Shown here piece after piece: positions 694 through 41,638 of a DNA stretch of 41,673 bases. Both the position numbers and the translations under genes were made by a program. Each line of letters opens with the position of its first letter. The stretch's first letter is position 1. The notes beneath the pieces are model-generated. The model had not been told where the DNA came from and did not search any database. It saw only the letters and a program-made list of their open reading frames with translations. The stretch comes from a virus (taxonomy: Duplodnaviria; Heunggongvirae; Uroviricota; Caudoviricetes). The stretch lies in IMG/VR virus record IMGVR_UViG_3300006145_000006, positions 66,480-108,152 of that record. The stretch is one strand, 5' to 3'.

Positions 694-730
694 GTCTCTT
701 TTCCTTTCTATTCACCATAAAAGTACAATT

Positions 731-1225
731 TTATGCCCAAAACCCAACTGTCCAATTTTGTAAGTATCCATTCTCATCAAAGTTACACATTGTTACATGC
801 CCGTTTTCAAACCTGCGAACAATCACATCCGAAGAATCAATTTCTCCCTGTGCGATATGAATACCAAACCAATTCACTATTGCCTCACTGTGAGTTTCAA
901 TCCAAAGATTCGCATTACGGGATCGCACTAGTTCGACCACACCTGCAATAACTTTTTTCTGAACTCTCGGATGCAAATCGTTTTCTGGGTGAATCAGCGC
1001 AATATCTAACCCCTCGCACTTCAGCATTTCATAGACTGACCATAGGATGGGAGCGCCAGAACCATTCCCACTCGGATATCCGCAACACCTTTCTACTAAA
1101 TCCAAAAACCCTTTGTCGCTTCGGTCCGGGGGCGAAGGGTTGCAGTACAAGCACCTAGGAATTGCACTGAGATATTTGCTCTTCCCTGATCCGTTTTCTC
1201 CAACCAAAATTTCAATCTTACTCAC
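731..1225 (-). CDS. Miniature ABC-type (AAA_15/AAA_21-like) ATPase with DUF3696-like C-terminus and degenerate Walker B
   Basis: Walker A GENGSGKS, D-loop-like PENDLHP, H-loop ETHS, C-terminal FDENGYLQNWTVGFW. Only 164 aa. Confidence 0.7.
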   Translation of the reverse strand: MSKIEILVGENGSGKSKYLSAIPRCLYCNPSPPDRSDKGFLDLVERCCGYPSGNGSGAPILWSVYEMLKCEGLDIALIHPENDLHPRVQKKVIAGVVELVRSRNANLWIETHSEAIVNWFGIHIAQGEIDSSDVIVRRFENGHVTMCNFDENGYLQNWTVGFWA

Positions 1226-1262
1226 AACATCACCTTCATTTTGGGCTCCAGAATTGATAAAA

Positions 1263-1517
1263 TCATCCTTTTATCTTCTTTAACAGTCTGATCAAAGACT
1301 CGAAGTCTGAATAGCTGTGCGGGTTAATTGGTTCTCCGTTCCACGCAGCGAAGAACACTCTCGCATCGTTTTCCGGTACAAATTCGCATTCTCCGTTCCA
1401 GTCCTCCAAAATATCCTGGATGTATTCCGCCACAATTACATAGATTTCACCATCTACATTCTCTGTGACAATTACAGTCCCATTCCCGTAGAAATTCACT
1501 GTCACGTCTTTGTTCAT
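1263..1517 (-). CDS. Hypothetical acidic protein
   Basis: 84-aa ORF with GAGGTGAGG RBS, co-oriented with neighbours. Confidence 0.75.
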   Translation of the reverse strand: MNKDVTVNFYGNGTVIVTENVDGEIYVIVAEYIQDILEDWNGECEFVPENDARVFFAAWNGEPINPHSYSDFESLIRLLKKIKG

Positions 1518-1534
1518 AGCCTCACCTCATAAAA

Positions 1535-1702
1535 TTACTGTTTTGTCTTGTCCGCAAACCGCTCATTTTCCCAACGTTCACACCAGCGTTGCTGGATAGA
1601 AACAAATTCAAGCCAGCTCCATTCGCCCCCAGCTTTAATGGGAACAATAGAAAACCGCTTAACAACACGGCTGTCACCATAATTAGGATCTCTCCATCGC
1701 AT
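1535..1702 (-). CDS. Small Trp-rich hypothetical protein (55 aa, not in ORF track)
   Basis: Hand translation MRWRDPNYGDSRVVKRFSIVPIK...; TAATG overlap with the upstream stop and a GGAGG RBS. Confidence 0.65.
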   Translation of the reverse strand: MRWRDPNYGDSRVVKRFSIVPIKAGGEWSWLEFVSIQQRWCERWENERFADKTKQ

Positions 1703-4621: not shown

Positions 4622-4682
4622 ATTCAATTTCTCCCTTCTAAGTCGGCATCACCCGCCTATTCCCGATAAAATAACGTTTTTA

Positions 4683-5162
4683 TCAATAGGTGACGGTAAA
4701 CATGCCGTCCAGGTGCTTATGGCACATACTTTCATATGTAGATCCCGTCATACCTACATTAACGTCACACTGGACGACATGTTCGCCGTGTAGTGCATAA
4801 AAGTCATCAAAAATATCATCATCCAGGATCGCGTAGTTCTCAACGCCAGGATGTTCGTCAATCCACTTCTTGATCTCTGCTCCTCGATTAGACCCATGCA
4901 GAAGTGGAGTATGGCCCAGAATGTTAATTCCGTCACGCAGTCCTCCATTTCTAAGGCACTCTTGGTAGTTCTCCGCGGCTCGCCACGTGCTAGACACCAC
5001 AATGTCATAACCGTAATTCTGGCAAAACTCCGAAAGCCACTGAACTGCTTGAAAATTGTTGACGGAGCCGTCACGAGGAAAGTTAAAACGGCAACGTTTG
5101 CCATCTGGTGTCCACATTGCCGTGTTTACAACACCGTCGTAGTCAAGAAATACTACGTTCAT
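4683..5162 (-). CDS. HAD-superfamily phosphatase (HAD_SAK_2-like)
   Basis: Motif I FLDYDGV, motif II VVSSTWR, motif IV ILDDD. Confidence 0.85.
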   Translation of the reverse strand: MNVVFLDYDGVVNTAMWTPDGKRCRFNFPRDGSVNNFQAVQWLSEFCQNYGYDIVVSSTWRAAENYQECLRNGGLRDGINILGHTPLLHGSNRGAEIKKWIDEHPGVENYAILDDDIFDDFYALHGEHVVQCDVNVGMTGSTYESMCHKHLDGMFTVTY

Positions 5163-5197
5163 TATTTATCGCCATCCAATCTCATAAAAGAGTGCTT

Positions 5198-5761
5198 TTA
5201 TTGACCCTCGCAAACAATCTCATAGTCTCCGGACGAGACCTTCTTCCGCATATCTCTAATTGAGGAATACCACACAAATGTTTCCCCTGGCAATGTTATT
5301 TCGTACCCATTTTCAACCTTTTCGGCATGATAGATGGAACCTTTCACAAGCACATTTATGTGAGTTATAAAAGAAAATTTTTCTGGCAACATCGTCATTT
5401 CCTCACATAAATCGATTTTGCTTTGCTCCAAAAGCTCATCCGTAAAACCATTAACATATCCGTCATCGTCCCGCACCTGCACAAGAGCAAACATTGCACA
5501 GATTTTCTCCGCGGTGCTACTTGCCGTTTTCCCGTACTCCTTCAGTTCCCACAAAACAAAGCTCGGCTTCTTGACGCCGTCGATGTAGTCCGCAAGTGCA
5601 TCGTATAGGATTTCATCCAGCATTCGAGGCGTGTAGTTCTTCCACGGATAAGTACACTCTTTCCCCATGTACCGCTTAATGGAGTAAATCGGATCCCCCT
5701 TGTAGCCATATTTGTCGTTTCCCTTGCAGCACATGATGATGTTACAGGTTCGTTGCTCCAT
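5198..5761 (-). CDS. Hypothetical protein, possibly a two-part fusion
   Basis: ORF with GAGGTGA RBS. There is an internal GAGGAA-ATG and a degenerate palindrome copy at 5367-5384. Confidence 0.75.
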   Translation of the reverse strand: MEQRTCNIIMCCKGNDKYGYKGDPIYSIKRYMGKECTYPWKNYTPRMLDEILYDALADYIDGVKKPSFVLWELKEYGKTASSTAEKICAMFALVQVRDDDGYVNGFTDELLEQSKIDLCEEMTMLPEKFSFITHINVLVKGSIYHAEKVENGYEITLPGETFVWYSSIRDMRKKVSSGDYEIVCEGQ

Positions 5762-7361: not shown

Positions 7362-7391
7362 TCCGTCTCTCCTTTCAATGAAACCGCAGTT

Positions 7392-8318
7392 TTATCTGGT
7401 CTTTGTGGGATATGTATAATGGGAAGTCACAACTAGTTTGGCCTCGCCTTCCTCATAATCCCCGCCTTCAATGGCCTCTGTAAGGCCCGCAATCGAGCCC
7501 GCAATGCCGTTAGCAAAAATGTCAGAACCGTAAAAGCCCCAGCATGAATCAACTTCCTCCCAGGTGCTGTCATCATCCTCGGCCTCTGTATCGGCTTTCT
7601 TGAGGAGAGTGAACCCATACACATCGCCGGTGAGATACTGGTCGTATTCTTTAACCTCGGCCTCCATAAGCCGGGTTGCACACTCCCTCCAGTCGTTCTC
7701 ACTGTAGCCGATTTCTTTGATGACATTATCCTTCGTGGTATAAATCCATCCAACCTGCCCACTATCCCAACAGTCAGCAAATTGACCTCTCCTCACTCCA
7801 CAGGACATCGTGATACCGCTATGATCATATAGCCAGAGCGGGAGCCATATCGCATAGGGCTCCATCAATGTCATACAATGCCCGATAGTCAAATCGTCCA
7901 GCAGGTAGTACACGGCGGTGTCTTCGCTAACCTCTTCATACTCCAGGCATTCCTCCGGCTCCCCATCTCCGATAGGGCTTCTCCACTGACAGATTTCGTA
8001 GATGTTTACCAGATTGTCATGCCCCTCGCATTTTTCGATACGGATACCGGTGAGCTTCCCAGCTTTCGCCGCAACCATAACCTCGCTTTCAGGCACATTC
8101 TCTCGGACGAGTCTTTGCCAAAATTCCTCCGGGGTATCATCCCCAACGTCATCACCGAGCCGATAATGTCGATGCCAACACGCCATATAGGTTCCTGTGT
8201 GATCCCAGTCAGTCCTTGGATTCATCGGGTCATCGTCATGTTGAACATGGAGGCAAAACTGGCCGCCCTCATGCTCGAACTTCACGGTGTCATTGTCGTA
8301 CATTCTGAACTCCATCAC
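7392..8318 (-). CDS. Conserved acidic phage early protein (YDHSG...WDSGQVG...DSCWGFYG family)
   Basis: 308 aa, strongly acidic, with recognisable family motifs. Function unknown. Confidence 0.8.
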   Translation of the reverse strand: MMEFRMYDNDTVKFEHEGGQFCLHVQHDDDPMNPRTDWDHTGTYMACWHRHYRLGDDVGDDTPEEFWQRLVRENVPESEVMVAAKAGKLTGIRIEKCEGHDNLVNIYEICQWRSPIGDGEPEECLEYEEVSEDTAVYYLLDDLTIGHCMTLMEPYAIWLPLWLYDHSGITMSCGVRRGQFADCWDSGQVGWIYTTKDNVIKEIGYSENDWRECATRLMEAEVKEYDQYLTGDVYGFTLLKKADTEAEDDDSTWEEVDSCWGFYGSDIFANGIAGSIAGLTEAIEGGDYEEGEAKLVVTSHYTYPTKTR

Positions 8319-8356
8319 AGCTTCCCCTTCTTATGAAATGACCGTTTTATGTAGTT

Positions 8357-8833: not shown

Positions 8834-8858
8834 ATTTTCACCCCATAAAATGTCTGTT

Positions 8859-9149
8859 TTACTTGCTCTCGAAAACTTTCATAGCATCAATGTGCGCCTT
8901 GGCCTCGGACAAAGTGCATCCAGTCTGCTCACGATACAGAACGCAGGCATTCACGGTATTGCCGGCGGCAACCAGTTCCTGGACGGTCGGATGACACTCA
9001 ATCGCCCTTCCACTAACAGACAACCCCCGCAAAAACTCGGAGTAAAGCTCAGGAGCTTTGTCACACTCGATCCCCGTCGTGATCTGAAATGCCATAAGAA
9101 CATAGTTGCCCCTGACGATGTCACCGTTAGAAAGTTTGTAAAATTCCAT
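8859..9149 (-). CDS. Protein with a ribosomal L7/L12 C-terminal-like motif
   Basis: ELVAAGNTVNACVLYREQTGCTLSEAKAHIDAM fits the L..G..i.Aik.yRe.tg.gL.EAK..vd pattern. Confidence 0.6.
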   Translation of the reverse strand: MEFYKLSNGDIVRGNYVLMAFQITTGIECDKAPELYSEFLRGLSVSGRAIECHPTVQELVAAGNTVNACVLYREQTGCTLSEAKAHIDAMKVFESK

Positions 9150-11690: not shown

Positions 11691-11759
11691 GATAAAATTG
11701 ATGTTTTATAAGGTTTGGGGAGGGGCCTATCGCTTGACCCCTCCCCGGCGGGTTTCCCA

Positions 11760-20473: not shown

Positions 20474-23284
20474 TTGGAGGTTATCAGCATAGCACTAGAC
20501 AAGCAAGTCCATCTCTACGCCGTGGATACCAAGGCATTTTATACAGATGAAGAGATGGCGATCGAAAAAGAGATCTCGGAACTACGGAAGCGAAAGAGGC
20601 AAAACAAGGCTGTGGTTGATTTGATGGAGGAATATCACCACGGTGGGATCAAAGAGGGGAAACTCAAGAAGCGACTGGTGGACTGTAAGTATCTGTCACA
20701 GAAGGAGGATCCGCTCCCGGATGACGATACTATCGTGTGGTTGAAGCAAGAGTCCCGGAGATTGGCCCAGGAAATTTCATCTAAAAAGAACGAATTACGA
20801 AAGGTTTTTGATGATTTTTGTGGGGTTAGGCAATTTAGAAATGAATTTTTGACAGATTTTAATGTCATTTCTATTTTTGAATCCTATTTGACCAGGACAA
20901 TTGGAGTTCAAGCCGGCGAGCTGACCAGAGATCTGCTCGTAGTCAAAACCTGTTATTTCAAAGTCCTTCAGGATATTATCTATAACGGATTTATACTGGA
21001 CGTGGATAAATACGTTATCTACACCGCATCCGCTGGGCAGATCAGAACCAAGCGGTCGGTGTTCATCCGGGAGAGCGTCCTCCGGGAACATGAGATGACG
21101 TTGATGTGTGGGCTAACTGTGGATCATATCAATGAGCTTGGTGGTGTGAACACCAACAAATATCTGGCATACTTGGCTCTCAGCAACTCGGCCACGGACG
21201 AATGGACGGACTTTGACATTGATCGGTGTATCGTGGTTGACGACTTTGAGACAGAGGTCCATGGCGTGGTGGATTACATAGACGATAAAACCTACGAGAT
21301 CACCCGCCAGGAGATGGGTGTCCCTATCACTCATACGGACGGTGCGGGGATGATCTTGCCGTCTGTGAGCAAGAAGAACTTTATGTGTCGGTTGCCTTGG
21401 GTCAAGGGGCTCCTTGCTTCTTTCCCGTTTGACAAGTTCATTCGTGAGGCCAATAGAAAGGAACCAAAGGTCAATCACGGAATCGTCAAGGATATTTATG
21501 GGCAGGAACATGACGTACTGGCGGAGAACATCCAAATCATATTCACAAAATCCCAGTTCAAAATGTCAAAATATTATTCGAATTGGGAGGAATATAAAAC
21601 TTTTTTCAAAAAGTACAACTGCCAAGCCGGTATCTGTAATATGGAAGAGGACGAGTTTGGCAAAGCGAAGATTAATTACCAGATGTTACAAACGCTGACT
21701 GACCTTAGTGATGATGAGCTGTGGGAGATCATGTCTGCCACGGTGAGCAAGCTGGACAGAACTTGTCATGACCGGGAGACCATGCTTCAGGTATTTGGCG
21801 CCACCAGGAGTAACACAAGGCCGTCGGCATTCCAGAGGGCTCTTCTCCTCTACCCGGAGCTTTTACAGGACGAGTACAGCAGGGACACCCTGCGGCTGAT
21901 CCGGGCCAAGCTGGAGCGTGAGGCTGTTGCGGGGAGACTGGATGTAGAGGGGTACTACACGTTCATTGTTCCTGACCTATACGCATTTTGCCAACGACTG
22001 TTCCTCAGGGAAGAAAACCCAACCGGACTACTGGTGGACGGAGAGGTCTATTGTAGATTATTTGAGCCCGGCGCGGAGCTGGACTGTCTGCGGAGTCCGC
22101 ATCTGTACCGGGAGCACGCCGTGCGAAAAAACATGTTTGGAATCAATGATGAAGCCAAACGCTGGTTTGCCACCGATGCTTTGTATACGAGTGATATGGA
22201 TCTAATTAGCCGCGTACTGCAATTCGATTGCGACGGAGATAAGGCATTGGTTGTATCTGATAAAGTGTTGGTGGATGCGGCCAAACGAAATATGGACGGG
22301 ATCGTTCCGCTCTATTACCCGGGACTAAAAGCACCACCGTCCGCTATTACACCGGAGAACATTTACAAAAGCATGACATGGGCATATACATCTTGCAATG
22401 TTGGTGTGGTGTCCAACGAAATCACTCGCGTCTGGTCCAGTGACCAAGAGATCGATCTTGACTTGGTCAAGTTCCTTACGCTCTACAACAACCTCGTGAT
22501 CGACGCGGCCAAGAATCTGTATCTTCCGAAAAAGCCGGAAGATATCTTGCAGAGGCTGGCCCCGTACACCAAATCGAAGGTTCCCCACTTCTTCATGGAG
22601 GCCAAGCAGAAATCACGCAAGCAGGTAGCTTCCATTAACGGCTCCACCGTGAACCGAATCCGAGGTCTCCTCCCTGCTATGCGGCTGAACTTTAACTGGG
22701 ACTCCTGCGGGAAGTTTGACTGGCGGATGCTGTGTTCCTTTTCCGTTATCCCCCGTAATGACATCACTCAAAAAATCGTTGATATGTTTAAGCAACGCTC
22801 CCGGAAGATGAGGTTTAAGACCGATGATGAGACAAACGAGAGCAACCGCGTGTTTCTGTGCGAGCAGCTACGCGCAGACCTTCTGTCTATTCATCCGGAC
22901 CCTCACTTTGTCTGTGATGTGCTGGTACGGGAGCTCTTTGATCCAAGGCACAGCTCCAAGCGGAAGATCGTCTTCTGGGAGTGCTTTGGCGGCGAGGTCG
23001 TAGAACATCTCCAGAAGAATGTGAACCAGAACCAGAAGATGTGTACGAGGTGTGGCAAGCGATACTACCGAGAAGCCGCTAACCAGGTTCTATGCCCGGC
23101 GTGCCAGAAAAAGCAACGCCGTCAATATAAGACACAATGGGATAGAAACAAGAGAAAGTGCGGACAGGGCAACAATTCTTTTGTATCTCATGAGCCACAT
23201 GGAGTACAGAAAAACGAAAATCCAATTTCAAATAATGAGGATTTTGAGCAATCCCATGGGCCACATGGAGTACAGAGAATATAG
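20474..23284 (+). CDS. yonO: YonO-type single-subunit DNA-dependent RNA polymerase (two-barrel family)
   Basis: 936 aa; catalytic DCDGD at 22226-22240; RSPH and TDGAG motifs; C-terminal CxxC...CxxC. Position upstream of the SPbeta-like late genes agrees. Confidence 0.85.
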   Translation: MEVISIALDKQVHLYAVDTKAFYTDEEMAIEKEISELRKRKRQNKAVVDLMEEYHHGGIKEGKLKKRLVDCKYLSQKEDPLPDDDTIVWLKQESRRLAQEISSKKNELRKVFDDFCGVRQFRNEFLTDFNVISIFESYLTRTIGVQAGELTRDLLVVKTCYFKVLQDIIYNGFILDVDKYVIYTASAGQIRTKRSVFIRESVLREHEMTLMCGLTVDHINELGGVNTNKYLAYLALSNSATDEWTDFDIDRCIVVDDFETEVHGVVDYIDDKTYEITRQEMGVPITHTDGAGMILPSVSKKNFMCRLPWVKGLLASFPFDKFIREANRKEPKVNHGIVKDIYGQEHDVLAENIQIIFTKSQFKMSKYYSNWEEYKTFFKKYNCQAGICNMEEDEFGKAKINYQMLQTLTDLSDDELWEIMSATVSKLDRTCHDRETMLQVFGATRSNTRPSAFQRALLLYPELLQDEYSRDTLRLIRAKLEREAVAGRLDVEGYYTFIVPDLYAFCQRLFLREENPTGLLVDGEVYCRLFEPGAELDCLRSPHLYREHAVRKNMFGINDEAKRWFATDALYTSDMDLISRVLQFDCDGDKALVVSDKVLVDAAKRNMDGIVPLYYPGLKAPPSAITPENIYKSMTWAYTSCNVGVVSNEITRVWSSDQEIDLDLVKFLTLYNNLVIDAAKNLYLPKKPEDILQRLAPYTKSKVPHFFMEAKQKSRKQVASINGSTVNRIRGLLPAMRLNFNWDSCGKFDWRMLCSFSVIPRNDITQKIVDMFKQRSRKMRFKTDDETNESNRVFLCEQLRADLLSIHPDPHFVCDVLVRELFDPRHSSKRKIVFWECFGGEVVEHLQKNVNQNQKMCTRCGKRYYREAANQVLCPACQKKQRRQYKTQWDRNKRKCGQGNNSFVSHEPHGVQKNENPISNNEDFEQSHGPHGVQRI

Positions 23285-23696: not shown

Positions 23697-24824
23697 ATGG
23701 GAAAGTTTAAGGATTTAACAGGTCAGAGATTTGGACGTTGGACCGTATTGCGTTTCCAGCGCAATGACAAAGGAGATCCTCGCTGGTTTTGCCGATGTGA
23801 TTGCGGAACCGAAAAATTGGTATCTGGCTCACATTTGCGGCTTGGGCACAGCACTTCTTGCGGATGTATAACGGCAGAAAAGGCGCGAAATCGCGGAATG
23901 GATTTATCTGGTAAAGTTTTTGGGCACTTAACAGTCAACAAAAGAGCTCCTGCAAGCAGTCAAGATGGTGTAGTGTGGGAGTGTAGTTGTGATTGCGGTA
24001 AACAATATTTACTATCTACAAGACAGTTAACTAGTCGCGGAGCATCCTCTGTATGCTGTAATGGGAAAGAACCTCACGATCCGAAAGTTATTGCCATGAG
24101 AAACGAAATGATTGGAAAACGTTTTGGATTTTTGACGGTTTTATACATTCAGTCGTCTAAAAATCATAGGGCCCTTGTCCATTGTCGTTGTGACTGCGGC
24201 AACGAGTGTGATATTAGAATGGATGTTCTGAAAAGGCAGAAATCACCGTCATGTGGATGCAGGTTTAAGGAATTACGACGTAACACTTTTGATGAAAAGA
24301 GAAAGAATCTGCTTGGGGAACGCTTTGGAAGACTTGTTGTCGAATCCGGATTTTATCGAGGCAATGAGTACATATGGAAATGTAGGTGTGATTGTGGCGA
24401 AAGCGTAGAGGCAAACACATCAGAATTGCTAAATAATCGCAAGATGTCGTGTCCAAAATGCACCATGTCGAATGGTGAAACGAAGATTAGTAACTTGTTA
24501 TCTGAGCATGGCATTAATTTCACCTATAATACTTCGTATATGAATTGCCGCTTCCCAGATACTCATTATCTTGCTAAATTCGATTTTATTGTTGCTGATA
24601 ATTATATAATCGAGTATGATGGATCACAGCATTTTGTCGGATTTTGGTCTGATGCATTCTCCGGCGAGACATTAGAGCGGAGAATATGGAAAGATAACTA
24701 CAAAAATCAGTTCTGTTTTAACCACCATATTCCAATTATCCGCATACCATATACGCACTACAACGACTTGTGCTTTGAGGACTTAGTCCCAGAGACGAGT
24801 CCTTTTTTATTACAGCCAGATTGA
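23697..24824 (+). CDS. Free-standing homing-endonuclease-like protein (repeated G.RFG.L.V / C.CDCG modules plus a PD-(D/E)XK, DUF559-like nuclease)
   Basis: Four C.CDCG repeats; C-terminal FDF...IIEYDGSQH...D..K...IPIIRIPY. More AT-rich than its flanks. Confidence 0.75.
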   Translation: MGKFKDLTGQRFGRWTVLRFQRNDKGDPRWFCRCDCGTEKLVSGSHLRLGHSTSCGCITAEKARNRGMDLSGKVFGHLTVNKRAPASSQDGVVWECSCDCGKQYLLSTRQLTSRGASSVCCNGKEPHDPKVIAMRNEMIGKRFGFLTVLYIQSSKNHRALVHCRCDCGNECDIRMDVLKRQKSPSCGCRFKELRRNTFDEKRKNLLGERFGRLVVESGFYRGNEYIWKCRCDCGESVEANTSELLNNRKMSCPKCTMSNGETKISNLLSEHGINFTYNTSYMNCRFPDTHYLAKFDFIVADNYIIEYDGSQHFVGFWSDAFSGETLERRIWKDNYKNQFCFNHHIPIIRIPYTHYNDLCFEDLVPETSPFLLQPD

Positions 24825-24836
24825 AGGTGAATCATC

Positions 24837-26018
24837 ATAGAGGATATCAAATCTTTTATTCCAAGGCTCTTAAATATGCTGGAAGAACACAAGGATCCAC
24901 AAAGTAGTCTCAACTGGGCCGATATTACATTAGAACTTAATAAGGCACTGGGGACAAATTACGACTACAACACAGTTCGTAAGGGGAATTTTCTCTTAGA
25001 CTTCATTATGAGCAACGGTTATTCGCTCCAGCCGAATGATACAGATGATAGAATCATGAATAATACATATGTCCAGCGCAAGCTGGATGCCGAAAAGGCT
25101 ATAGTGAAGCTCCGGGACGAACGCAATGAGCTCGCTCGTATACAGAGGGAACTCGCGCGCCGGGAGTCCGTTGTGGATATTGTCCGGGAGATGCTTCACA
25201 CCGAGGTCACCCCTCTGCCTGGGTATGTGCCACACAACGCAGAGACCAGCGACGCGGATCTTATTGTTCATTTGACAGACATACATGCCGGCATTGAGAT
25301 CAGCAACTATTGCAACGAATACAGCTCCGAGGTGATGCACCAGCGGCTGGATGTCTATCTGGACAAAATCAGAGAAATCGCGCTCCGACACCGCGCGGAG
25401 AATTGCCATGTGCTTCTTGGCGGGGATCTCATCTCCGGAGCGATCCACTCCACCATCCGAATTGAAAACCAGATGGACGTGATTCGTCAGCTCAAGCTTG
25501 TTTCCATGGAAATCGGACGGTTTGTGTCTGAGCTGAGCCGGATGTTTGGCGGCGTGGAGGTCTACTCGGTGGCTGGCAACCACAGCCGGCTGTCTCCCAA
25601 CAAGGCAGACCATCTCAAGGGTGAGAATCTGGACACCCTGGTCCCCTTCTATTTGACCGCCCTTCTCCAGAACTATGAAAACGTACATATCCACGAAGAG
25701 AACGTTGAGGAGAGCGTAGCCATGTTCAGCGTTCGGGGACAACGGGTGTTTGGTGCCCACGGTGATAAGGACACACCGGAGAATGTGGTACAACGATTGA
25801 CCATGATGTTTGGCGTTAAGCCTGATATTGTGATGCTTGGCCATCGTCATACGAACGGGATGAAGACGGTATACGACTCGAAGGTCATTGAGAGCGGCTG
25901 TGTAAGTGGGCCGGACAACTACTGTATGGATCACCGCCTCCGCAACAAACCGGAGCAGGCAGTCCTGGTTGTGTCCGACAATGGGCTGGAATGTCTTTAT
26001 GATGTAAAGCTGGATTAA
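24837..26018 (+). CDS. Calcineurin-like metallophosphoesterase (YonJ-like) with an N-terminal coiled coil
   Basis: DIH, GD, GNH, H.D and GHRH motifs. The start may be ATA 24837 behind GAAGGTGA; otherwise ATG 24876. Confidence 0.85.
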   Translation: MEDIKSFIPRLLNMLEEHKDPQSSLNWADITLELNKALGTNYDYNTVRKGNFLLDFIMSNGYSLQPNDTDDRIMNNTYVQRKLDAEKAIVKLRDERNELARIQRELARRESVVDIVREMLHTEVTPLPGYVPHNAETSDADLIVHLTDIHAGIEISNYCNEYSSEVMHQRLDVYLDKIREIALRHRAENCHVLLGGDLISGAIHSTIRIENQMDVIRQLKLVSMEIGRFVSELSRMFGGVEVYSVAGNHSRLSPNKADHLKGENLDTLVPFYLTALLQNYENVHIHEENVEESVAMFSVRGQRVFGAHGDKDTPENVVQRLTMMFGVKPDIVMLGHRHTNGMKTVYDSKVIESGCVSGPDNYCMDHRLRNKPEQAVLVVSDNGLECLYDVKLD

Positions 26019-26052
26019 CGAATTTCAATAGCATAGTCAGGAGGTGGTTGTA

Positions 26053-27042
26053 GTGGCACAGAAAAGTCCTTTAATTCGGTTTTATGATGAGGATAAGCTA
26101 AAAAAGATCAACCCGGAGACAATGAAGTTCTGGCAAAAGTACCGCATCGATATGGAACTGCGAGACTTGAGCGAGAAAACGATTGCCGGATACTACAACG
26201 ACCTCCAGCACTGGTGGATCTTCGTCTATGACAATCAGGGCAATCAGTGCGTAACAGATTTGACTGAGGACGACTTGACTGAATTTCTGTATTTTTGCAA
26301 AACTCAGGGCAACAATTCCCGCAGGATGAAGCGGAGGATGTCCTCCATCTCGGCCTTTTATAAGTTCTTGCGAAAGAAGAAGCTCATCAGCGAGAATCCC
26401 ATGGAGTTCATAGATCGCCCAAAGAAGGATGTGGACGTGCTGGTGCAGACTTACCTCACGCCGGAGCAGGTTGGTCAGATGCGTGAGGCACTGTCTTCCA
26501 ATATTGACACGGCCACTACCGACCGGGCTAAGAATGCCGCACTCACTTTACGGGTCTATGCCCTGTTTTCCCTGTCTACGATGGCTCGGGTAACGGCCAT
26601 TAGCAACACCCGATGGGAACAAATCGACCTTGACGAACGAACGGTCAATGAAGTGATTGAGAAAGAGGGCTATATTGTAGACCTTGGGTTCTCCGAGGAG
26701 GTCTCGGGTCTGCTATCCGAGCTGAGACGGTTCCGGCAGGAGCACAACATTGATGATGGTGGGTTCGTGTTCTATTCAGACCACGGAAGTCAAATTGACG
26801 CCATCGATACCGGTTCTCTAAACGAGTGGTGTAAAAAGATTGGGCGCATGATTGATGTTCCCACCCTCCATCCACACGATTTTCGGCACAGCGGGGCAAC
26901 CTTGCTTAAAAACGCTGGCATGAGTCTTGAGGATGTTAGTGCTTTGTTAAACCATGCAGGGACAGATGTTACTAAGAAGTACTACATCAAAGAGGATAAG
27001 AGCAAACTCAAGAAGGCAAAAGACCAGTTTGAAACCTTCTAA
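26053..27042 (+). CDS. Tyrosine recombinase (XerC/D-like) with intact catalytic residues
   Basis: SAM-like N-domain (SS.SAFYKFL), R in MARV, HDFRH, LNH and the C-terminal Y (TKKYY). GTG start behind AGGAGG. Confidence 0.9.
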   Translation: MAQKSPLIRFYDEDKLKKINPETMKFWQKYRIDMELRDLSEKTIAGYYNDLQHWWIFVYDNQGNQCVTDLTEDDLTEFLYFCKTQGNNSRRMKRRMSSISAFYKFLRKKKLISENPMEFIDRPKKDVDVLVQTYLTPEQVGQMREALSSNIDTATTDRAKNAALTLRVYALFSLSTMARVTAISNTRWEQIDLDERTVNEVIEKEGYIVDLGFSEEVSGLLSELRRFRQEHNIDDGGFVFYSDHGSQIDAIDTGSLNEWCKKIGRMIDVPTLHPHDFRHSGATLLKNAGMSLEDVSALLNHAGTDVTKKYYIKEDKSKLKKAKDQFETF

Positions 27043-27047
27043 GCCTG

Positions 27048-27065
27048 ATAAAACCTATATTTTAT
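27048..27065. repeat. Exact ATAAAA-N6-TTTTAT copy directly after the tyrosine recombinase stop
   Basis: ATAAAA CCTATA TTTTAT. Further right-arm copies lie at 39925 (ATGAAA TCAAAA TTCTAT) and 41610 (GTAAAA CCGCTC TTTTAT). Confidence 0.85.
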
Positions 27066-27153
27066 GGTCCTGCCAAGTCGAAGGCTTGCGTTCCTACGCG
27101 GGGTATTGATGTAGGCTTGGTGGGATTATTTTATATTGCCTGGGGGTGAGCTG

Positions 27154-28272
27154 ATGGCTGGACGGCCGGCAGGCTCCAAAAACAAGACGCCCCCTAAAAT
27201 CAATACGGACAACCTCCCCCCTCTTTACAAGTGTACGGAGTGCGGCAAAGTGGTACAGGCCCCGAAAGGGGTCTTTTTCATGTCCAAGCAGTCCGGCATG
27301 TACGACGGGAACGAGGGATATTCCCATCTGTGCGCCGAATGCACCAATAAGCGGTACGAAAACTATAAGGCCAAGCTGAAGGACGAGCGGTTGGCTTTGA
27401 TCCTCACCTGTGCCTCCATCGGCGTCTACTTTTCTGATGAGCTGTACGCCTCCGTGAAGGGGAATGTGGACTCGGTGCGGTTTGGAGATTTTATCAAGGC
27501 CCTGAATGGGACCCAGTACCGCTCCAAGAACTTTGCCACATTTCTCATCAACATCCTGCAAGACCAGGAGCAGCTCAGAGGCGGCTCCGAACTTCGGGAG
27601 GAGCGGGAGACAAAGTGGAAGCAGGCGGACCGCAAGAACAAGAAATATGTACTGGAAACCGTGGGCTATGACCCCTTCAACGATGACTCCTACACCGATG
27701 AGAACCGAAAGTTTCTGTTCAACACCCTGTCCGACTACCTGACCGACGAGGTCATCGAGGATCCCCACAAAATGCAGAGTGTGATCGCCCTGGTGAAGAC
27801 CACCCTCCAAAAGGAGAGCGTGGACAGCATGATAAACCTGGAGCTTCGGAAGGCCCATCCAGATTACGCTACCATCAAGCAGCTTACCGACATCAAGGAC
27901 AAGCTGGGGGCTGACATTATCAAGACGGCCAAGGACAACGGCATTTCCGCCGCCGCAAACGGCAAGTCCGGCAAGAGCAGCAATGCTCTGACGGCCATTA
28001 TGAAGGAGATGGCGGAGAACGGCTTTGAAGAAATCAAGGTCAATGTGATAGATGCTAAGATGTCGTCCTCCTACAAAGAGGTGGCAGAGCAGAACGCCAG
28101 AGCCCTCATCAACGAGCTTGGATTCACCCAGGATGACTATGCCCGTATGCTGGGGGAACAGTCCGAGATGGCCCGCAAGCTCCAGGAGAGTCTGGATAAG
28201 GCCCAGGAGGAGCTACGGCTGGCGAAGAAGGCTCTGAAGGAGGAGCATGAGAAGGGGCGGAGTAAGAAGTGA
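27154..28272 (+). CDS. Zn-finger/coiled-coil protein upstream of terminase (candidate small terminase)
   Basis: GRP AT-hook-like start, CxxC...CxxC, overlap with terL. The function is inferred from synteny only. Confidence 0.5.
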   Translation: MAGRPAGSKNKTPPKINTDNLPPLYKCTECGKVVQAPKGVFFMSKQSGMYDGNEGYSHLCAECTNKRYENYKAKLKDERLALILTCASIGVYFSDELYASVKGNVDSVRFGDFIKALNGTQYRSKNFATFLINILQDQEQLRGGSELREERETKWKQADRKNKKYVLETVGYDPFNDDSYTDENRKFLFNTLSDYLTDEVIEDPHKMQSVIALVKTTLQKESVDSMINLELRKAHPDYATIKQLTDIKDKLGADIIKTAKDNGISAAANGKSGKSSNALTAIMKEMAENGFEEIKVNVIDAKMSSSYKEVAEQNARALINELGFTQDDYARMLGEQSEMARKLQESLDKAQEELRLAKKALKEEHEKGRSKK

Positions 28273-30107
28273 GCCTGAGTATCATTGTCCGCCCCGGGTG
28301 TAAGGAGGTATCTCAGCGCAAGCTGGAGGTCTATGACAAGTATTGTCAGGTGATCCAGTGGGGGCGGGCGCATCCCGTCAAGTTTTGTAGCCGCTTTATG
28401 GGCGTTGAGCTGCTGGACATGCAGGCATATGTCATTGGAAACACCTGGCCTGTCGACTTTGCCCTGTGGCTGGAGTCCAGAAATGCGGGAAAAAGTACAA
28501 AATTGGCTGTTTACACCATGCTTCGTAGTCTGCTCATCCCCCTTCATGCCACCTACTTCTTAGGTAACAGCGGCGCACAGGCAAAGGAGACCTACTCCAA
28601 GATCGAGAAAATCGCCAAGAAGGAGATCGAGTCCTTTACCGGCAGCACCGATGTGTTCATGGAGGAGATCCTGCGCAGCGGTCCCACGGGGGACGGGTTT
28701 ACCCACAGCCCGGAGTCCTTCACATTCAAGCTGTTCAACGGTTCAACAGTGAACACCCTGAACAGCGACATCACCAATATCAAGGGAAAGCGTGCCAACC
28801 TGGTGTGCTTTGATGAGGCCGGGTGGTTCAGCGATGAGCTATTCGTGCAGGCGGAGCAGTTCGTCAACCAGGATGAGAACTTCAAGCTGGGCGGCAACAT
28901 CGATCTGACTTTGGAACCGAAGGGCTTTCCCCGTCAGCTTCTCTACGCCTCCTCCGCCAGCGACACCAGTTCGGAGTTCTATAAGAAGTTCCGTAATTTC
29001 TCGGAGCGGATGCTGATGGGGGATACCAAATACTTTGCCTGTAACATCGACATCGACACGGTGATGAAAGCCAAGTTCAAGGGTAACCCCTACCCTCCCC
29101 TGCTCAGCCAGGATAAGGTGGATAAAGCACTGGCCGACAACAAGGAGAAGGCGCTCCGGGAACTTTACAACAAGTTCTCAGCGGACAGCCACGAGGGGCA
29201 GATCCTCACCAGGCGTGACTTGCGGCAGTGTACGGAAAACCGCCCGCCGCTGCTGTTCAACGATACTGGCAACCGACTGTTTATGCTGGCGTGGGACTCC
29301 GCTCGCCTGAACGATAACAGCGTGATCGGTGTCGCTGAACTTCGCAATGATCCGGACAAGGGCTGGTGCATGGACCTTCATAATGTGGTGAGCCTTGTGG
29401 ACGTGGATGCCAAAAAGAGGACCCCCATGATATTGCCGGAACAGGTAAGCCGCTTCCAGGAGTTGCTGTTGGCTTATAATGGAAGTGAGTTTCAAAAGTT
29501 GGACTATGAGAATATCCAAGCGGTCGTCTGTGATTCCGGCGCCGGTGGGCAGATGATAGGCGGCGTGTCCGATTATATGTTGGCGGACTGGGTGGACAAA
29601 AACGGCAACACCCACCGCGGCATTATCGATAAAAGCCATAAAGCCAATGAAACATCGCAGTACAAATACGAGAATGCAATAGACATTATGAAGCTGGTAG
29701 ATCCAAGAGCACACCGCAATGAGATTTTTGATGCCGCTGAAAAAATGGTCAAATTGGGTGTTGTCACCTTCCCGGCCGACTGGGATGGGAAAGACGAGCT
29801 GGTTCGTATTTTGGATGACGGCACCGAGGACAGATATACGTTATCTCCCGATGAGCGAGTTGCCCTGGGCCAAATTGAGCTTCTGAAGACAGAAATCATC
29901 ACGATGTGCAAAACCAGCAGCAACGGGAATATATCCTATAATTTCCCGCCAGACAAGCGCAACACCATGCACGATGACCGTGCGTTTATGTTCGGTCTTC
30001 TCTGTTGGTATCTGGCTGTGTTGCGCCGGGGGCAAATTATCAATAGAACAGACAATGATGATAGCTTCGAAAATGCGCAAAGCTGTGTCAGTTCCATTTC
30101 TTACTAA
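28269..30107 (+). CDS. terL: Terminase large subunit
   Basis: Walker A-like SRNAGKS, Walker B VCFDEAG, nuclease acidic residues (WDSAR, DSG, HDDR). Confidence 0.85.
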   Translation: MSLSIIVRPGCKEVSQRKLEVYDKYCQVIQWGRAHPVKFCSRFMGVELLDMQAYVIGNTWPVDFALWLESRNAGKSTKLAVYTMLRSLLIPLHATYFLGNSGAQAKETYSKIEKIAKKEIESFTGSTDVFMEEILRSGPTGDGFTHSPESFTFKLFNGSTVNTLNSDITNIKGKRANLVCFDEAGWFSDELFVQAEQFVNQDENFKLGGNIDLTLEPKGFPRQLLYASSASDTSSEFYKKFRNFSERMLMGDTKYFACNIDIDTVMKAKFKGNPYPPLLSQDKVDKALADNKEKALRELYNKFSADSHEGQILTRRDLRQCTENRPPLLFNDTGNRLFMLAWDSARLNDNSVIGVAELRNDPDKGWCMDLHNVVSLVDVDAKKRTPMILPEQVSRFQELLLAYNGSEFQKLDYENIQAVVCDSGAGGQMIGGVSDYMLADWVDKNGNTHRGIIDKSHKANETSQYKYENAIDIMKLVDPRAHRNEIFDAAEKMVKLGVVTFPADWDGKDELVRILDDGTEDRYTLSPDERVALGQIELLKTEIITMCKTSSNGNISYNFPPDKRNTMHDDRAFMFGLLCWYLAVLRRGQIINRTDNDDSFENAQSCVSSISY

Positions 30108-39895: not shown

Positions 39896-39954
39896 TGCTC
39901 TTTCCTATTCGCACCGAATGGACGATGAAATCAAAATTCTATAAGGATAAGCCA

Positions 39955-40395
39955 ATGAAACAAAAGTCGAAGTTCAATGTGGACACCAACACCGCCAAGC
40001 GCACCTATGACGGCATTGTATTTGACAGTGTCCTGGAGATGAAGTACTACCGTGATGTAGTTTTGCCCCAAGTGGGAAGCGGCGCAATCGTTGAGTATGA
40101 GCTCCAGAAGAGCTATGAGCTGCAACCGAAATTTACATATCACGGAACCACTGTCCGAGCCATCACCTATGTGGCTGACTTCTATCTGGTCTATGCGGAT
40201 GGAGAGCAAGAGGTCATCGACATCAAAGGGATGGCTGATACTACGGCCAAATTGAAACGAAAGCTGTTTTGGCACACATACCCGGAGCTGCCCTATCGCT
40301 GGGTCAGCTATTCCGCCAAGGACGGCGGATGGATCGATTATGATAAGCTACAAAAACTGCGCCGGGAGCGCAAGAAGAATAAGGAGGCCAACTAA
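39955..40395 (+). CDS. DUF1064-family PD-(D/E)XK endonuclease-like protein
   Basis: DGIVFDS.LE..YY, YVADF and DIKG motifs. Confidence 0.75.
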   Translation: MKQKSKFNVDTNTAKRTYDGIVFDSVLEMKYYRDVVLPQVGSGAIVEYELQKSYELQPKFTYHGTTVRAITYVADFYLVYADGEQEVIDIKGMADTTAKLKRKLFWHTYPELPYRWVSYSAKDGGWIDYDKLQKLRRERKKNKEAN

Positions 40396-41604: not shown

Positions 41605-41638
41605 AGACGGTAAAACCGCTCTTTTATCAGGTTAACAG

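Follow-up and report, generated by a model that had tools for sequence, protein, structure and literature searches.

A Xer-like tyrosine recombinase as a candidate enzyme for the gene-junction palindromes of a 108-kb phage genome

Heterospecific pairs of lox or FRT sites restrict exchange to matching sites. Among the short repeats of phage genomes, the PeSL of T4-type phages consist of a promoter and a GC stem-loop, and the stoperators of cluster A mycobacteriophages are asymmetric repressor sites. In single-recombinase Xer systems, the sites difSL and difH adjoin the genes xerS and xerH, their inner arms read GAAAA...TTTTC, and difH has a 6-bp centre (PMC5357621). A tyrosine-recombinase fold can also serve repression: MrpR of phage SPbeta, in which most catalytic residues are lost, is a repressor with this fold that binds a dispersed repeat (PMC10516654). 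The locus compared with these systems here lies in the final 41.7 kb of a 108,152-bp IMG/VR virus record (IMGVR_UViG_3300006145_000006, Caudoviricetes; positions 66,480 to 108,152), a stretch of 41,673 nucleotides referred to below as the window. It comprises a late-operon gene for a Xer-like tyrosine recombinase and, just behind it, one copy of a palindrome, ATAAAA-N6-TTTTAT, that recurs at gene junctions throughout the genome. That the recombinase acts on these palindromes is plausible, though short of probable, and the argument is one of correlation and analogy. Three lines point to the extra tyrosine recombinases of such phages: the copy linked to the gene, a one-way co-occurrence of arrays with recombinases, and the Xer-type architecture of the site. 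Related genomes, mostly from IMG/VR, carry G-numbers, this one being G000; coordinates are collected in Table 1.

The recombinase gene likely starts at GTG 26053, which lies 8 nt past a GGAGG and corresponds to the residue at which homologues start; an alternative GTG at 26044 overlaps the ribosome-binding site (RBS), and the frame closes with TAA at 27040-27042. The product matches Pfam Phage_integrase PF00589 (9e-19; 68.3 bits against a cut-off of 27.1) and PHROG integrase families, and Phage_int_SAM_1 identifies the N-terminal part as a SAM-like core-binding domain. When 12 homologues and solved XerC-like and XerD chains are aligned with the protein, the catalytic residues come out as R182, K207, H278-x-x-R281, H304 and Y314 (numbered on the 332-aa translation P0001; numbers in the 329-aa coding sequence are lower by 3). 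They follow the order R, K, HxxR, H/W, Y and are invariant or nearly so across 13 homologues, which bears out the intact active site proposed in an earlier reading of the window from its letters and open reading frames (ORFs) alone, below called the sequence-only reading. An AlphaFold2 (AF2) model built on 18 sequences has a mean pLDDT of 90.2, and the nearest solved folds found by Foldseek are XerA (the best, at 3e-12 and 19% identity), the Tn1549 Int, IntI, the core-binding and catalytic domains of lambda Int, XerH and Cre. As modelled, the protein is a plain two-domain tyrosine recombinase, core-binding plus catalytic, that lacks an arm-binding domain; judged by its intact residues and fold, it should be catalytically competent.

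Given this active site, a non-catalytic role like that of MrpR, in which the protein would bind the dispersed sites as a repressor, is hardly credible. The precedent is a recombinase-fold repressor on a dispersed repeat in SPbeta (PMC10516654), but MrpR has lost most of the catalytic residues that the present clade keeps in full, neither Pfam domain of MrpR (MrpR_N_CB, MrpR_C_cat) is found in the recombinase (YopR itself scores 484 bits), and the gene belongs to the late operon, outside the lysogeny module. The repeats differ as well. Nine of 10 MrpR-bound promoter regions share the 10-mer AATATGTATA, presumably the core of SPBRE and distinct from the junction palindrome, which rules out the palindrome as the MrpR operator.

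The recombinase belongs to a phage lineage of its own. Its closest named relatives are CST104 of phage c-st (57% identity), a protein of Alicyclobacillus phage KKP_3916 (40%), gp33 of Brevibacillus phage Sundance (37%) and, at 36-38%, proteins of the phiCD211 group; the values for CST104, gp33 and the phiCD211 recombinase (38%) are over full length. Recombinases of the Staphylococcus 6ec/SEP9 group are more distant (26%), and at least 165 relatives at about 60% identity are present in IMG/VR, in gut phages of 100-137 kb. A maximum-likelihood tree of 30 sequences, a comparison that the sequence-only reading had proposed, unites it with CST104, gp33 and the phiCD211 recombinase (support 96/98) and leaves it outside the host XerC/XerD pair. 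Host XerD and XerC, YopP and the phage's lysogeny integrase fall nearer to this clade, and a separate clade comprises the G011/G037 type, YomM of SPbeta and MrpR, the last on a long branch. Separate clades and blastp values of 2e-10 against YopP and 0.007 against YomM rule out a YomM-type identity; YomM also has HxxK where the late-operon recombinase has HxxR. An alignment profile nevertheless joins the two clades by way of intermediates, the 6ec and G011 proteins. Models of described families place the protein below their cut-offs: NCBIfam XerC (TIGR02224) gives 101.3 bits against 335 and XerD (TIGR02225) 94.7 against 330, both under equivalog level, XerA 101.2 against 220, XerS 44.5 against 267, and the IntI model TIGR02249, which matches the N-terminal part only, 29.7 against 265. 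CST104, Sundance gp33 and the recombinases of phiCD211 and other large C. difficile phages are annotated only as XerC/D-like or as integrases; the literature searched held no study of the function of CST104, gp33 or the phiCD211 recombinase and no relevant paper on yomM.

The site just past the stop codon, which the sequence-only reading had also noticed, is exact: the 18-mer ATAAAACCTATATTTTAT begins 5 nt after the TAA and occurs only once as an 18-mer. With at most one mismatch, ATAAAA-N6-TTTTAT is found 12 times in the window, where 0.12 would be expected, and 36 times in the 108-kb genome; one of these is doubled by the overlap of the record's ends, which leaves about 35 junction copies. 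An unbiased count of all palindromes with 5-bp arms puts TAAAA-N6-TTTTA far ahead of every other, and members of the family are also found in many uncultured phages as well as in SPbeta, phi3T and c-st. The leftward early block of this genome holds the majority of its copies, and most genes there carry a palindrome at the 3' end. Read in the direction of transcription, these early copies consist of an A-rich ACCC(A/G) flank, a first arm, a free 6-bp centre and a second arm. The layout is thus 6-6-6, and it widens to about 11-6-11 in SPbeta and G023, where T-Y-T-R-A stands outside the core. No centre recurs within any of the eight genomes compared, and all 236 centres are non-palindromic, which is what sites whose polarity and choice of partner depend on the centre should show. 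Because the copies fold only weakly as single strands (-1.5 to -4.8 kcal/mol as RNA; -1.9 kcal/mol for the copy at 27048), they more likely serve as duplex sites for a protein than as hairpin signals.

Some apparent sites call for separate mention. The sequence-only reading placed copies at 39925 and 41610, on either side of a three-gene tail block. The sequence at 39925, ATGAAATCAAAATTCTAT, overlaps a start codon and has two mismatches, a class in which about 1.8 chance matches are expected; it is not a copy, and the one at 41610 carries one mismatch, so no good pair brackets the block. The caution about a pure cassette model that had been drawn from this arrangement is justified, but the tail-block argument for it relied on a copy that does not exist. 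An 18-mer identical to the gene-linked one (centre CCTATA) stands in G002 at 39902-39919, 39 kb from the G002 recombinase and between unrelated flanks, with a chance probability of about 1%. Sharing of centres between unrelated genomes, at roughly 2-3 times chance, was set aside as a possible effect of composition. In c-st, AATTAAATTAAA stands about 8-12 nt behind many of the copies; it is a second repeat and maybe part of a phage-specific promoter or operator.

The position of a copy behind the recombinase gene recurs. A palindrome lies at most 80 nt past the recombinase stop in nine lineages (this phage, L008/L009, G036, G018/G040/G017, G043, G033, G029, G020 and G037), G033 having one beside each of its two recombinase genes. 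The distance is 230-570 nt, usually with one gene between, in SPbeta, c-st, G024/G041 and part of the G005 group. An average gene has an adjacent palindrome at a rate of 3-17% in seven complete genomes. Variant palindromes were also sought in the array-less genomes and in G011, and there only phiCD211 and G011 were notable, matches with 5-bp arms being at chance level. In phiCD211 (NC_029048.2, 57255-57322), the last 30 or so nucleotides of the recombinase gene together with TTTATA-AATAGA-TATAAA are present as a tandem duplicate, 50 bp apart; this palindrome is found nowhere else in the phiCD211 genome and may be a private site of its recombinase.

Arrays and recombinases also occur together. 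Arrays were scored as exact copies against the count of a reversed-pattern control. Twelve array genomes sampled from IMG/VR by motif, at 90% completeness or more, hold 7-55 exact copies against 0-2 in the control, and every one has a full-length match (E of 1e-38 or better) to a recombinase profile that spans both clades and so describes a broad group. Array and full-length match coincide in SPbeta, c-st, G002, G005 and G011 too. Among named phages, the counts are 14 against 1 in a phi3T-SPbeta hybrid, 13 against 1 in c-st, 0 against 0 in Sundance and 1 against 1 in phiCD211, the last two thus having no array. Relatives found through the recombinase have arrays in G002 and G005, a weak one in G003 and none in G001 and G004. 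Those found through the terminase include G011, with an array and a distant recombinase, G008, with a recombinase and no array, and G006 and G014, with neither. G006, which looks near-complete, is informative here: 25 of 128 genes are common to it and this phage, replication and packaging genes among them (large terminase 77%), yet two small ORFs occupy its slot between exonuclease and small terminase instead of the recombinase, and no palindrome of any kind is over-represented in it. G014 is a record of 64% completeness. The CheckV values of 64-71% for linear relatives, these two included, may be underestimates, which bears on all readings of presence and absence, as the circularly assembled 108-kb genome itself is rated only 66% complete.

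Phages with the array but without the gene, which the sequence-only reading had named as the case that would speak against a link, did not turn up among the near-complete genomes sampled. Two apparent cases dissolve. G011 has a distant full-length relative of the recombinase, and G039, with 21 copies and no tyrosine recombinase at all, is an incomplete contig that lacks terminase, portal and tape-measure-sized genes; since the module that usually houses the recombinase gene is missing from it, it is not a valid exception. The only array contigs without a tyrosine recombinase are incomplete ones. Arrays therefore imply a recombinase, and the reverse is not true.

Between SPbeta and phi3T, 8 of 58 ends of homology blocks lie within 25 bp of a palindrome centre, where 0.77 would be expected at random, and block ends fall at 10 of 27 palindrome junctions as opposed to 26 of 171 other gene junctions (Fisher p=0.013). 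In the window, similarity switches at the 27048 copy. Genes on its left have their nearest relatives in G002 (YonO 65%, exonuclease 57%, recombinase 61%), genes on its right in G006 (small terminase 55%, large terminase 77%). Among 64 close IMG/VR relatives, 64 of 3257 ends of high-scoring segment pairs lie near a palindrome against 13.7 expected, a count that carries little weight because the pairs are not independent and other gene junctions do not serve as a control. The laboratory hybrid Hyb3phi3Ts-SPbeta is uninformative, its crossovers lying within long tracts near-identical in both parents, where they cannot be placed.

Boundaries of this kind would arise with any enzyme that acts at the palindromes, and also if the palindromes were hot spots for homologous or illegitimate recombination at short sequences, as proposed for the PeSL of T4-type phages, with no part for the recombinase, whose gene would merely be another movable gene bounded by palindromes. 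The varying position of the gene is consistent with such mobility: this phage, G002 and G003 have it between exonuclease and terminase; SPbeta, Sundance and the G005 group have it ahead of the tape measure gene in the tail module; and phiCD211 has it behind the lysis genes. A comparison of SPbeta with G036 is suggestive as well, in that a 397-bp yozP segment sits exactly between the yomM stop and the palindrome in SPbeta, with a palindrome on one side only and not the two hybrid sites of a site-specific insertion; Hyb3phi3Ts-SPbeta, for its part, is explained by crossovers in long near-identical tracts. However, arms of 5-6 bp offer homologous recombination very little length, centres that are distinct and non-palindromic (236 of 236) fit a tyrosine-recombinase site better, and the two relatives without the recombinase, G006 and G014, are also without the array. 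Hot spots independent of the recombinase are, on this evidence, unlikely.

If the recombinase does act on the palindromes, it would work like a single-recombinase Xer (XerS/difSL, XerH/difH or XerA/dif) or like Cre/lox. Two monomers would bind the inverted TAAAA/TTTTA arms and are predicted to cleave at the edges of the 6-bp centre, with exchange only where the partner site has the same centre. The 27048 copy would be the home site and the roughly 35 junction copies further substrates. Because every centre differs, copies within one genome could not recombine with one another under such a model; the reaction would pair a site with its counterpart on a second genome copy, be it a sister replicon or a co-infecting relative, so that replicating DNA would be resolved or cyclised and the genes between sites swapped. 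In its most developed form, the proposal is that SPbeta-like phages possess a natural cassette exchange, in which "barcoded" TAAAA-N6-TTTTA junction sites are the targets of Xer-like recombinases from two clades, only sites of the same centre recombine, co-infecting relatives swap single genes at fixed addresses with neither genome scrambled, and the gene-linked copy is an attI-like home site. We offer this larger picture only tentatively and think it rather improbable as a whole.

Several observations weigh against a link between enzyme and site. First, the recombinase occurs without an array in Sundance, phiCD211, G001, G004, G008, G035 and G042, so its conserved job does not need one, and shared ancestry confounds the co-occurrence. 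None of the array-less genomes has a copy of TAAAA-N6-TTTTA beside the recombinase gene. Second, adjacency is neither general nor specific. Neither G002 nor G011, both of which have arrays, shows a copy near the recombinase gene; beside that of G011 stands a single strong palindrome, of another kind (7-8-7, at the stop). Two recombinase clades about 18% identical, this one and the YomM/G037 clade, adjoin the same palindrome, which is more simply explained by a tendency of movable or accessory genes to carry a 3' palindrome. Third, the outer-arm consensus does not track the recombinase clade, being ACCC here, TYTRA in SPbeta and G023 and not clear in c-st and G002; these last two, with unconserved outer bases, encode close homologues of this recombinase. 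Finally, most copies hold the upstream TAA stop in the first arm and are followed within 10-25 nt by an RBS and start codon, with a fixed orientation of the flank, a layout that suggests an expression signal. The sequence-only reading had called the recombinase the best candidate enzyme for the dispersed sites; the co-occurrence and the adjacency in nine lineages speak for this, and the array-less carriers of the gene, the arrangement in G002 and G011 and the two clades weaken it.

The same observations would be explained if enzyme and palindromes were unrelated. The recombinase would then act at a private site, perhaps late in infection in the resolution or cyclisation of genomes as they replicate, and the palindromes would be expression signals (an operator, a transcript-processing site or an inter-cistron translation signal) read by something else, the 27048 copy being where it is only because junctions often carry one. 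The stop within the first arm, the RBS behind the second at most early junctions and the consistent flank fit this reading, as do the promoter-like AATTAAATTAAA about 10 nt past the c-st copies, the conservation of the gene in many genomes without arrays, the arrays of G002 and G011 and the shared palindrome of two divergent clades. What it leaves unexplained is that no near-complete array genome lacks such a recombinase. Copies also stand after terminators and in late regions with no RBS behind them, the atypical 27048 copy among them, which has its next start codon 90 nt away; a structural RNA signal would call for stronger hairpins; and palindromes are enriched at homology-block boundaries even in comparison with other junctions, while the known operator, SPBRE, is a different sequence. 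An expression signal unconnected with the recombinase is a credible account, if somewhat on the improbable side.

The phage has a separate lysogeny module. A 388-aa tyrosine recombinase encoded outside the window is adjoined by an 83-aa excisionase-like gene (HTH_17), and just past its stop lies attP, 28 nt identical to the 3' end of a host tRNA-Gln(CTG). This sequence is found exactly in more than 120 genome records, mostly titled Oscillospiraceae or other Clostridia, and in Flavonifractor, Pseudoflavonifractor and Intestinimonas it coincides with the 3' end of tRNA-Gln(CTG); attP itself gives no tRNA or Rfam match because it holds only the 3' part of the tRNA. The genome contains no serine recombinase. 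Integrase, Xis-like gene and attP are a canonical lysogeny module, and since this module exists, the late-operon recombinase is not the lysogeny integrase. As the sequence-only reading held, the late-operon gene is not at an att-type boundary, and such a boundary elsewhere in the genome is occupied by the other integrase. A tRNA attB, which that reading had listed among possible refutations, does exist, but belonging as it does to the other integrase, it strips the late-operon gene of an integration role and leaves the palindrome idea unrefuted.

That the late-operon enzyme is nonetheless a lysogeny integrase, or a multimer resolvase of a circular plasmid prophage, is very unlikely. Among the phages with close homologues are c-st and the large C. 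difficile phages, which exist as plasmid prophages (PMC5786514), and a site beside the gene is also a feature of Cre/lox and Xer modules. But the canonical Int-Xis-attP(tRNA-Gln) set stands elsewhere, several relatives are classed as integrated proviruses, and the late-operon enzyme has no arm-binding domain, no neighbouring Xis and no host-like sequence beside its gene. The alternative raised in the sequence-only reading, a dimer resolvase of a circular prophage, is likewise unlikely as the main role in a phage with an integration module. Taken together, the three accounts that leave recombinase and palindromes unrelated (expression signal, hot spot, and integrase or resolvase) come out as slightly more probable than not. 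A third, divergent recombinase-fold protein of 349 aa is encoded in the early block (PF00589, 27.7 bits, partial), with homologues in G002, G006 and G011. It does not track the palindromes, because G006 has a homologue and no array.

The setting of the gene is that of the SPbeta late operon, and gene order around it is the same. As in the sequence-only reading, it lies between phosphoesterase and packaging genes, with a metallophosphoesterase/exonuclease on its 5' side and, on its 3' side, a gene in the position of the small terminase (TerS) and then the large terminase (TerL), followed by a portal-position gene. The TerS-position protein matches no Pfam or PHROG family. At the head of the operon stands a 936-aa homologue of YonO, in SPbeta the single-subunit RNA polymerase of late genes. 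The region between the recombinase and the TerS-position gene contains no promoter-like or terminator-like match. A gene for an AAA_16/STAND-like ATPase is located at the control region from which the leftward early block and the rightward genes diverge. The two ends of the record share 77 bp, a sign of circular assembly, and megablast finds no DNA relative in the phage collection. The phage is a large SPbeta-like phage, and its host, from the match of attP to tRNA-Gln, likely a gut member of the Oscillospiraceae. Among the relatives with palindrome arrays, G024, G041, G027 and G030 (165-217 kb) have recombinase homologues interrupted by 2-3 in-frame TAG codons and no other stops, which suggests that they are TAG-recoded phages.

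Table 1. Features of the window and its genome, with the palindromes discussed in the text (window coordinates unless stated)
Feature	Position	Strand	Basis or remark
Xer-like tyrosine recombinase coding sequence, 329 aa	26053..27042	+	Pfam, PHROG and NCBIfam matches; residues; AF2 model; tree clade B
Gene-linked junction palindrome ATAAAA-CCTATA-TTTTAT, candidate core site	27048..27065	.	exact; unique 18-mer
Intergenic region, recombinase to small-terminase-position gene	27043..27135	+	mosaic boundary relative to G002 and G006
Junction palindrome	717..734	.	exact
Junction palindrome	1257..1274	.	exact
Junction palindrome	1529..1546	.	1 mismatch
Junction palindrome	4666..4683	.	exact
Junction palindrome	5184..5201	.	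exact
Junction palindrome	7378..7395	.	1 mismatch
Junction palindrome	8333..8350	.	1 mismatch
Junction palindrome	8845..8862	.	1 mismatch
Junction palindrome	11692..11709	.	exact; by terminator-like hairpin heading the leftward early block
Palindrome (GTAAAA...TTTTAT)	41610..41627	.	1 mismatch; after stop codon, before terminator-like hairpin; in the 77-bp assembly overlap
Not a copy: match overlapping ATG of ORF 39925-40395	39925..39942	+	2 mismatches
AAA_16/STAND-like ATPase, 390 aa	12097-13269	-	divergent control region
YonO-type single-subunit RNA polymerase homologue, head of late operon	20474..23284	+	43% over 873 aa to SPbeta YonO, E=0; phrog_8308
HNH endonuclease gene, between YonO homologue and exonuclease gene	23697-24824		
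YonJ-like metallophosphoesterase/exonuclease, 5' neighbour of recombinase	24876..26018	+	Pfam Metallophos; phrog_284 exonuclease, 7e-61; weak SPbeta YonJ match
Small-terminase-position gene, 378 aa, 3' neighbour	27136..28272	+	synteny with gene preceding TerL in G002, G006, G008 and G011
Large terminase	28269..30107	+	phrog_9, 1e-4; IMG/VR relatives 65-77% identical
Lysogeny integrase, 388 aa, tyrosine recombinase	genome G000:C1 ~25901-27067 (outside window)	-	genome Pfam scan
Recombinase-fold gene, 349 aa	genome G000:C1:60168-61217 (outside window)	-	
c-st palindromes followed by AATTAAATTAAA, examples	c-st 3484, 20281, 29636, 30744, 34303, 41245		

Set against the described systems, the locus is most like the single-recombinase Xer pairs, XerH/difH of Helicobacter and Campylobacter, XerS/difSL of streptococci and lactococci and XerA/dif of archaea, which also use one two-domain recombinase. 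The likeness to difH and difSL extends to inverted A/T-rich inner arms (TAAAA...TTTTA here), a 6-bp centre in the case of difH and a candidate site beside the gene (PMC5357621), and the 11-6-11 layout of dif resembles the extended palindrome of SPbeta and G023. The differences are that the gene here belongs to the late operon of a phage and would have some 35 sites with differing centres, whereas Xer has a single site at the terminus, and that the recombinase scores far under the NCBIfam cut-offs for XerC, XerD, XerS and XerA. We know of no connection between the phage recombinase and FtsK. SPbeta has the same junction palindrome (38 matches with at most one mismatch against 4 in the control) and three genes of the recombinase fold, YomM, YopP and MrpR (YopR); the palindrome downstream of yomM-type genes keeps its centre, TCCCTC, across relatives while the yozP segment is present or absent right at its edge, an observation that counts in favour of a link. 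MrpR, catalytically dead and directed to a different repeat, contrasts with the late-operon recombinase and its complete set of catalytic residues. SPbeta and phi3T carry the same sites and are genetically tractable.

Other comparisons are looser. Integrons (IntI, attI, attC) likewise have a site beside the recombinase gene and many single genes each followed by a site, but the sites here are short duplex palindromes with weak single-strand folds, unlike attC, and the array has no promoter logic. PeSL and stoperators are alike in being short repeats at many early-gene junctions, often touching stop codons, at places where relatives differ in gene content; here, unlike there, AT arms form a palindrome around a free 6-bp centre. 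Should the link to the recombinase fail, the palindromes would be a widespread, undescribed expression signal, and the recombinase a conserved late-operon enzyme without known function. Should it hold, the nearest likeness in logic would be with Cre/lox and Flp/FRT, since distinct centres would limit exchange to matching sites in the manner of heterospecific lox and FRT pairs. To our knowledge, cassette exchange between heterospecific sites is an engineered use for which no natural system has been described; the junction palindromes would then be a natural one, and could explain how large temperate phages of Firmicutes trade accessory and defence genes.

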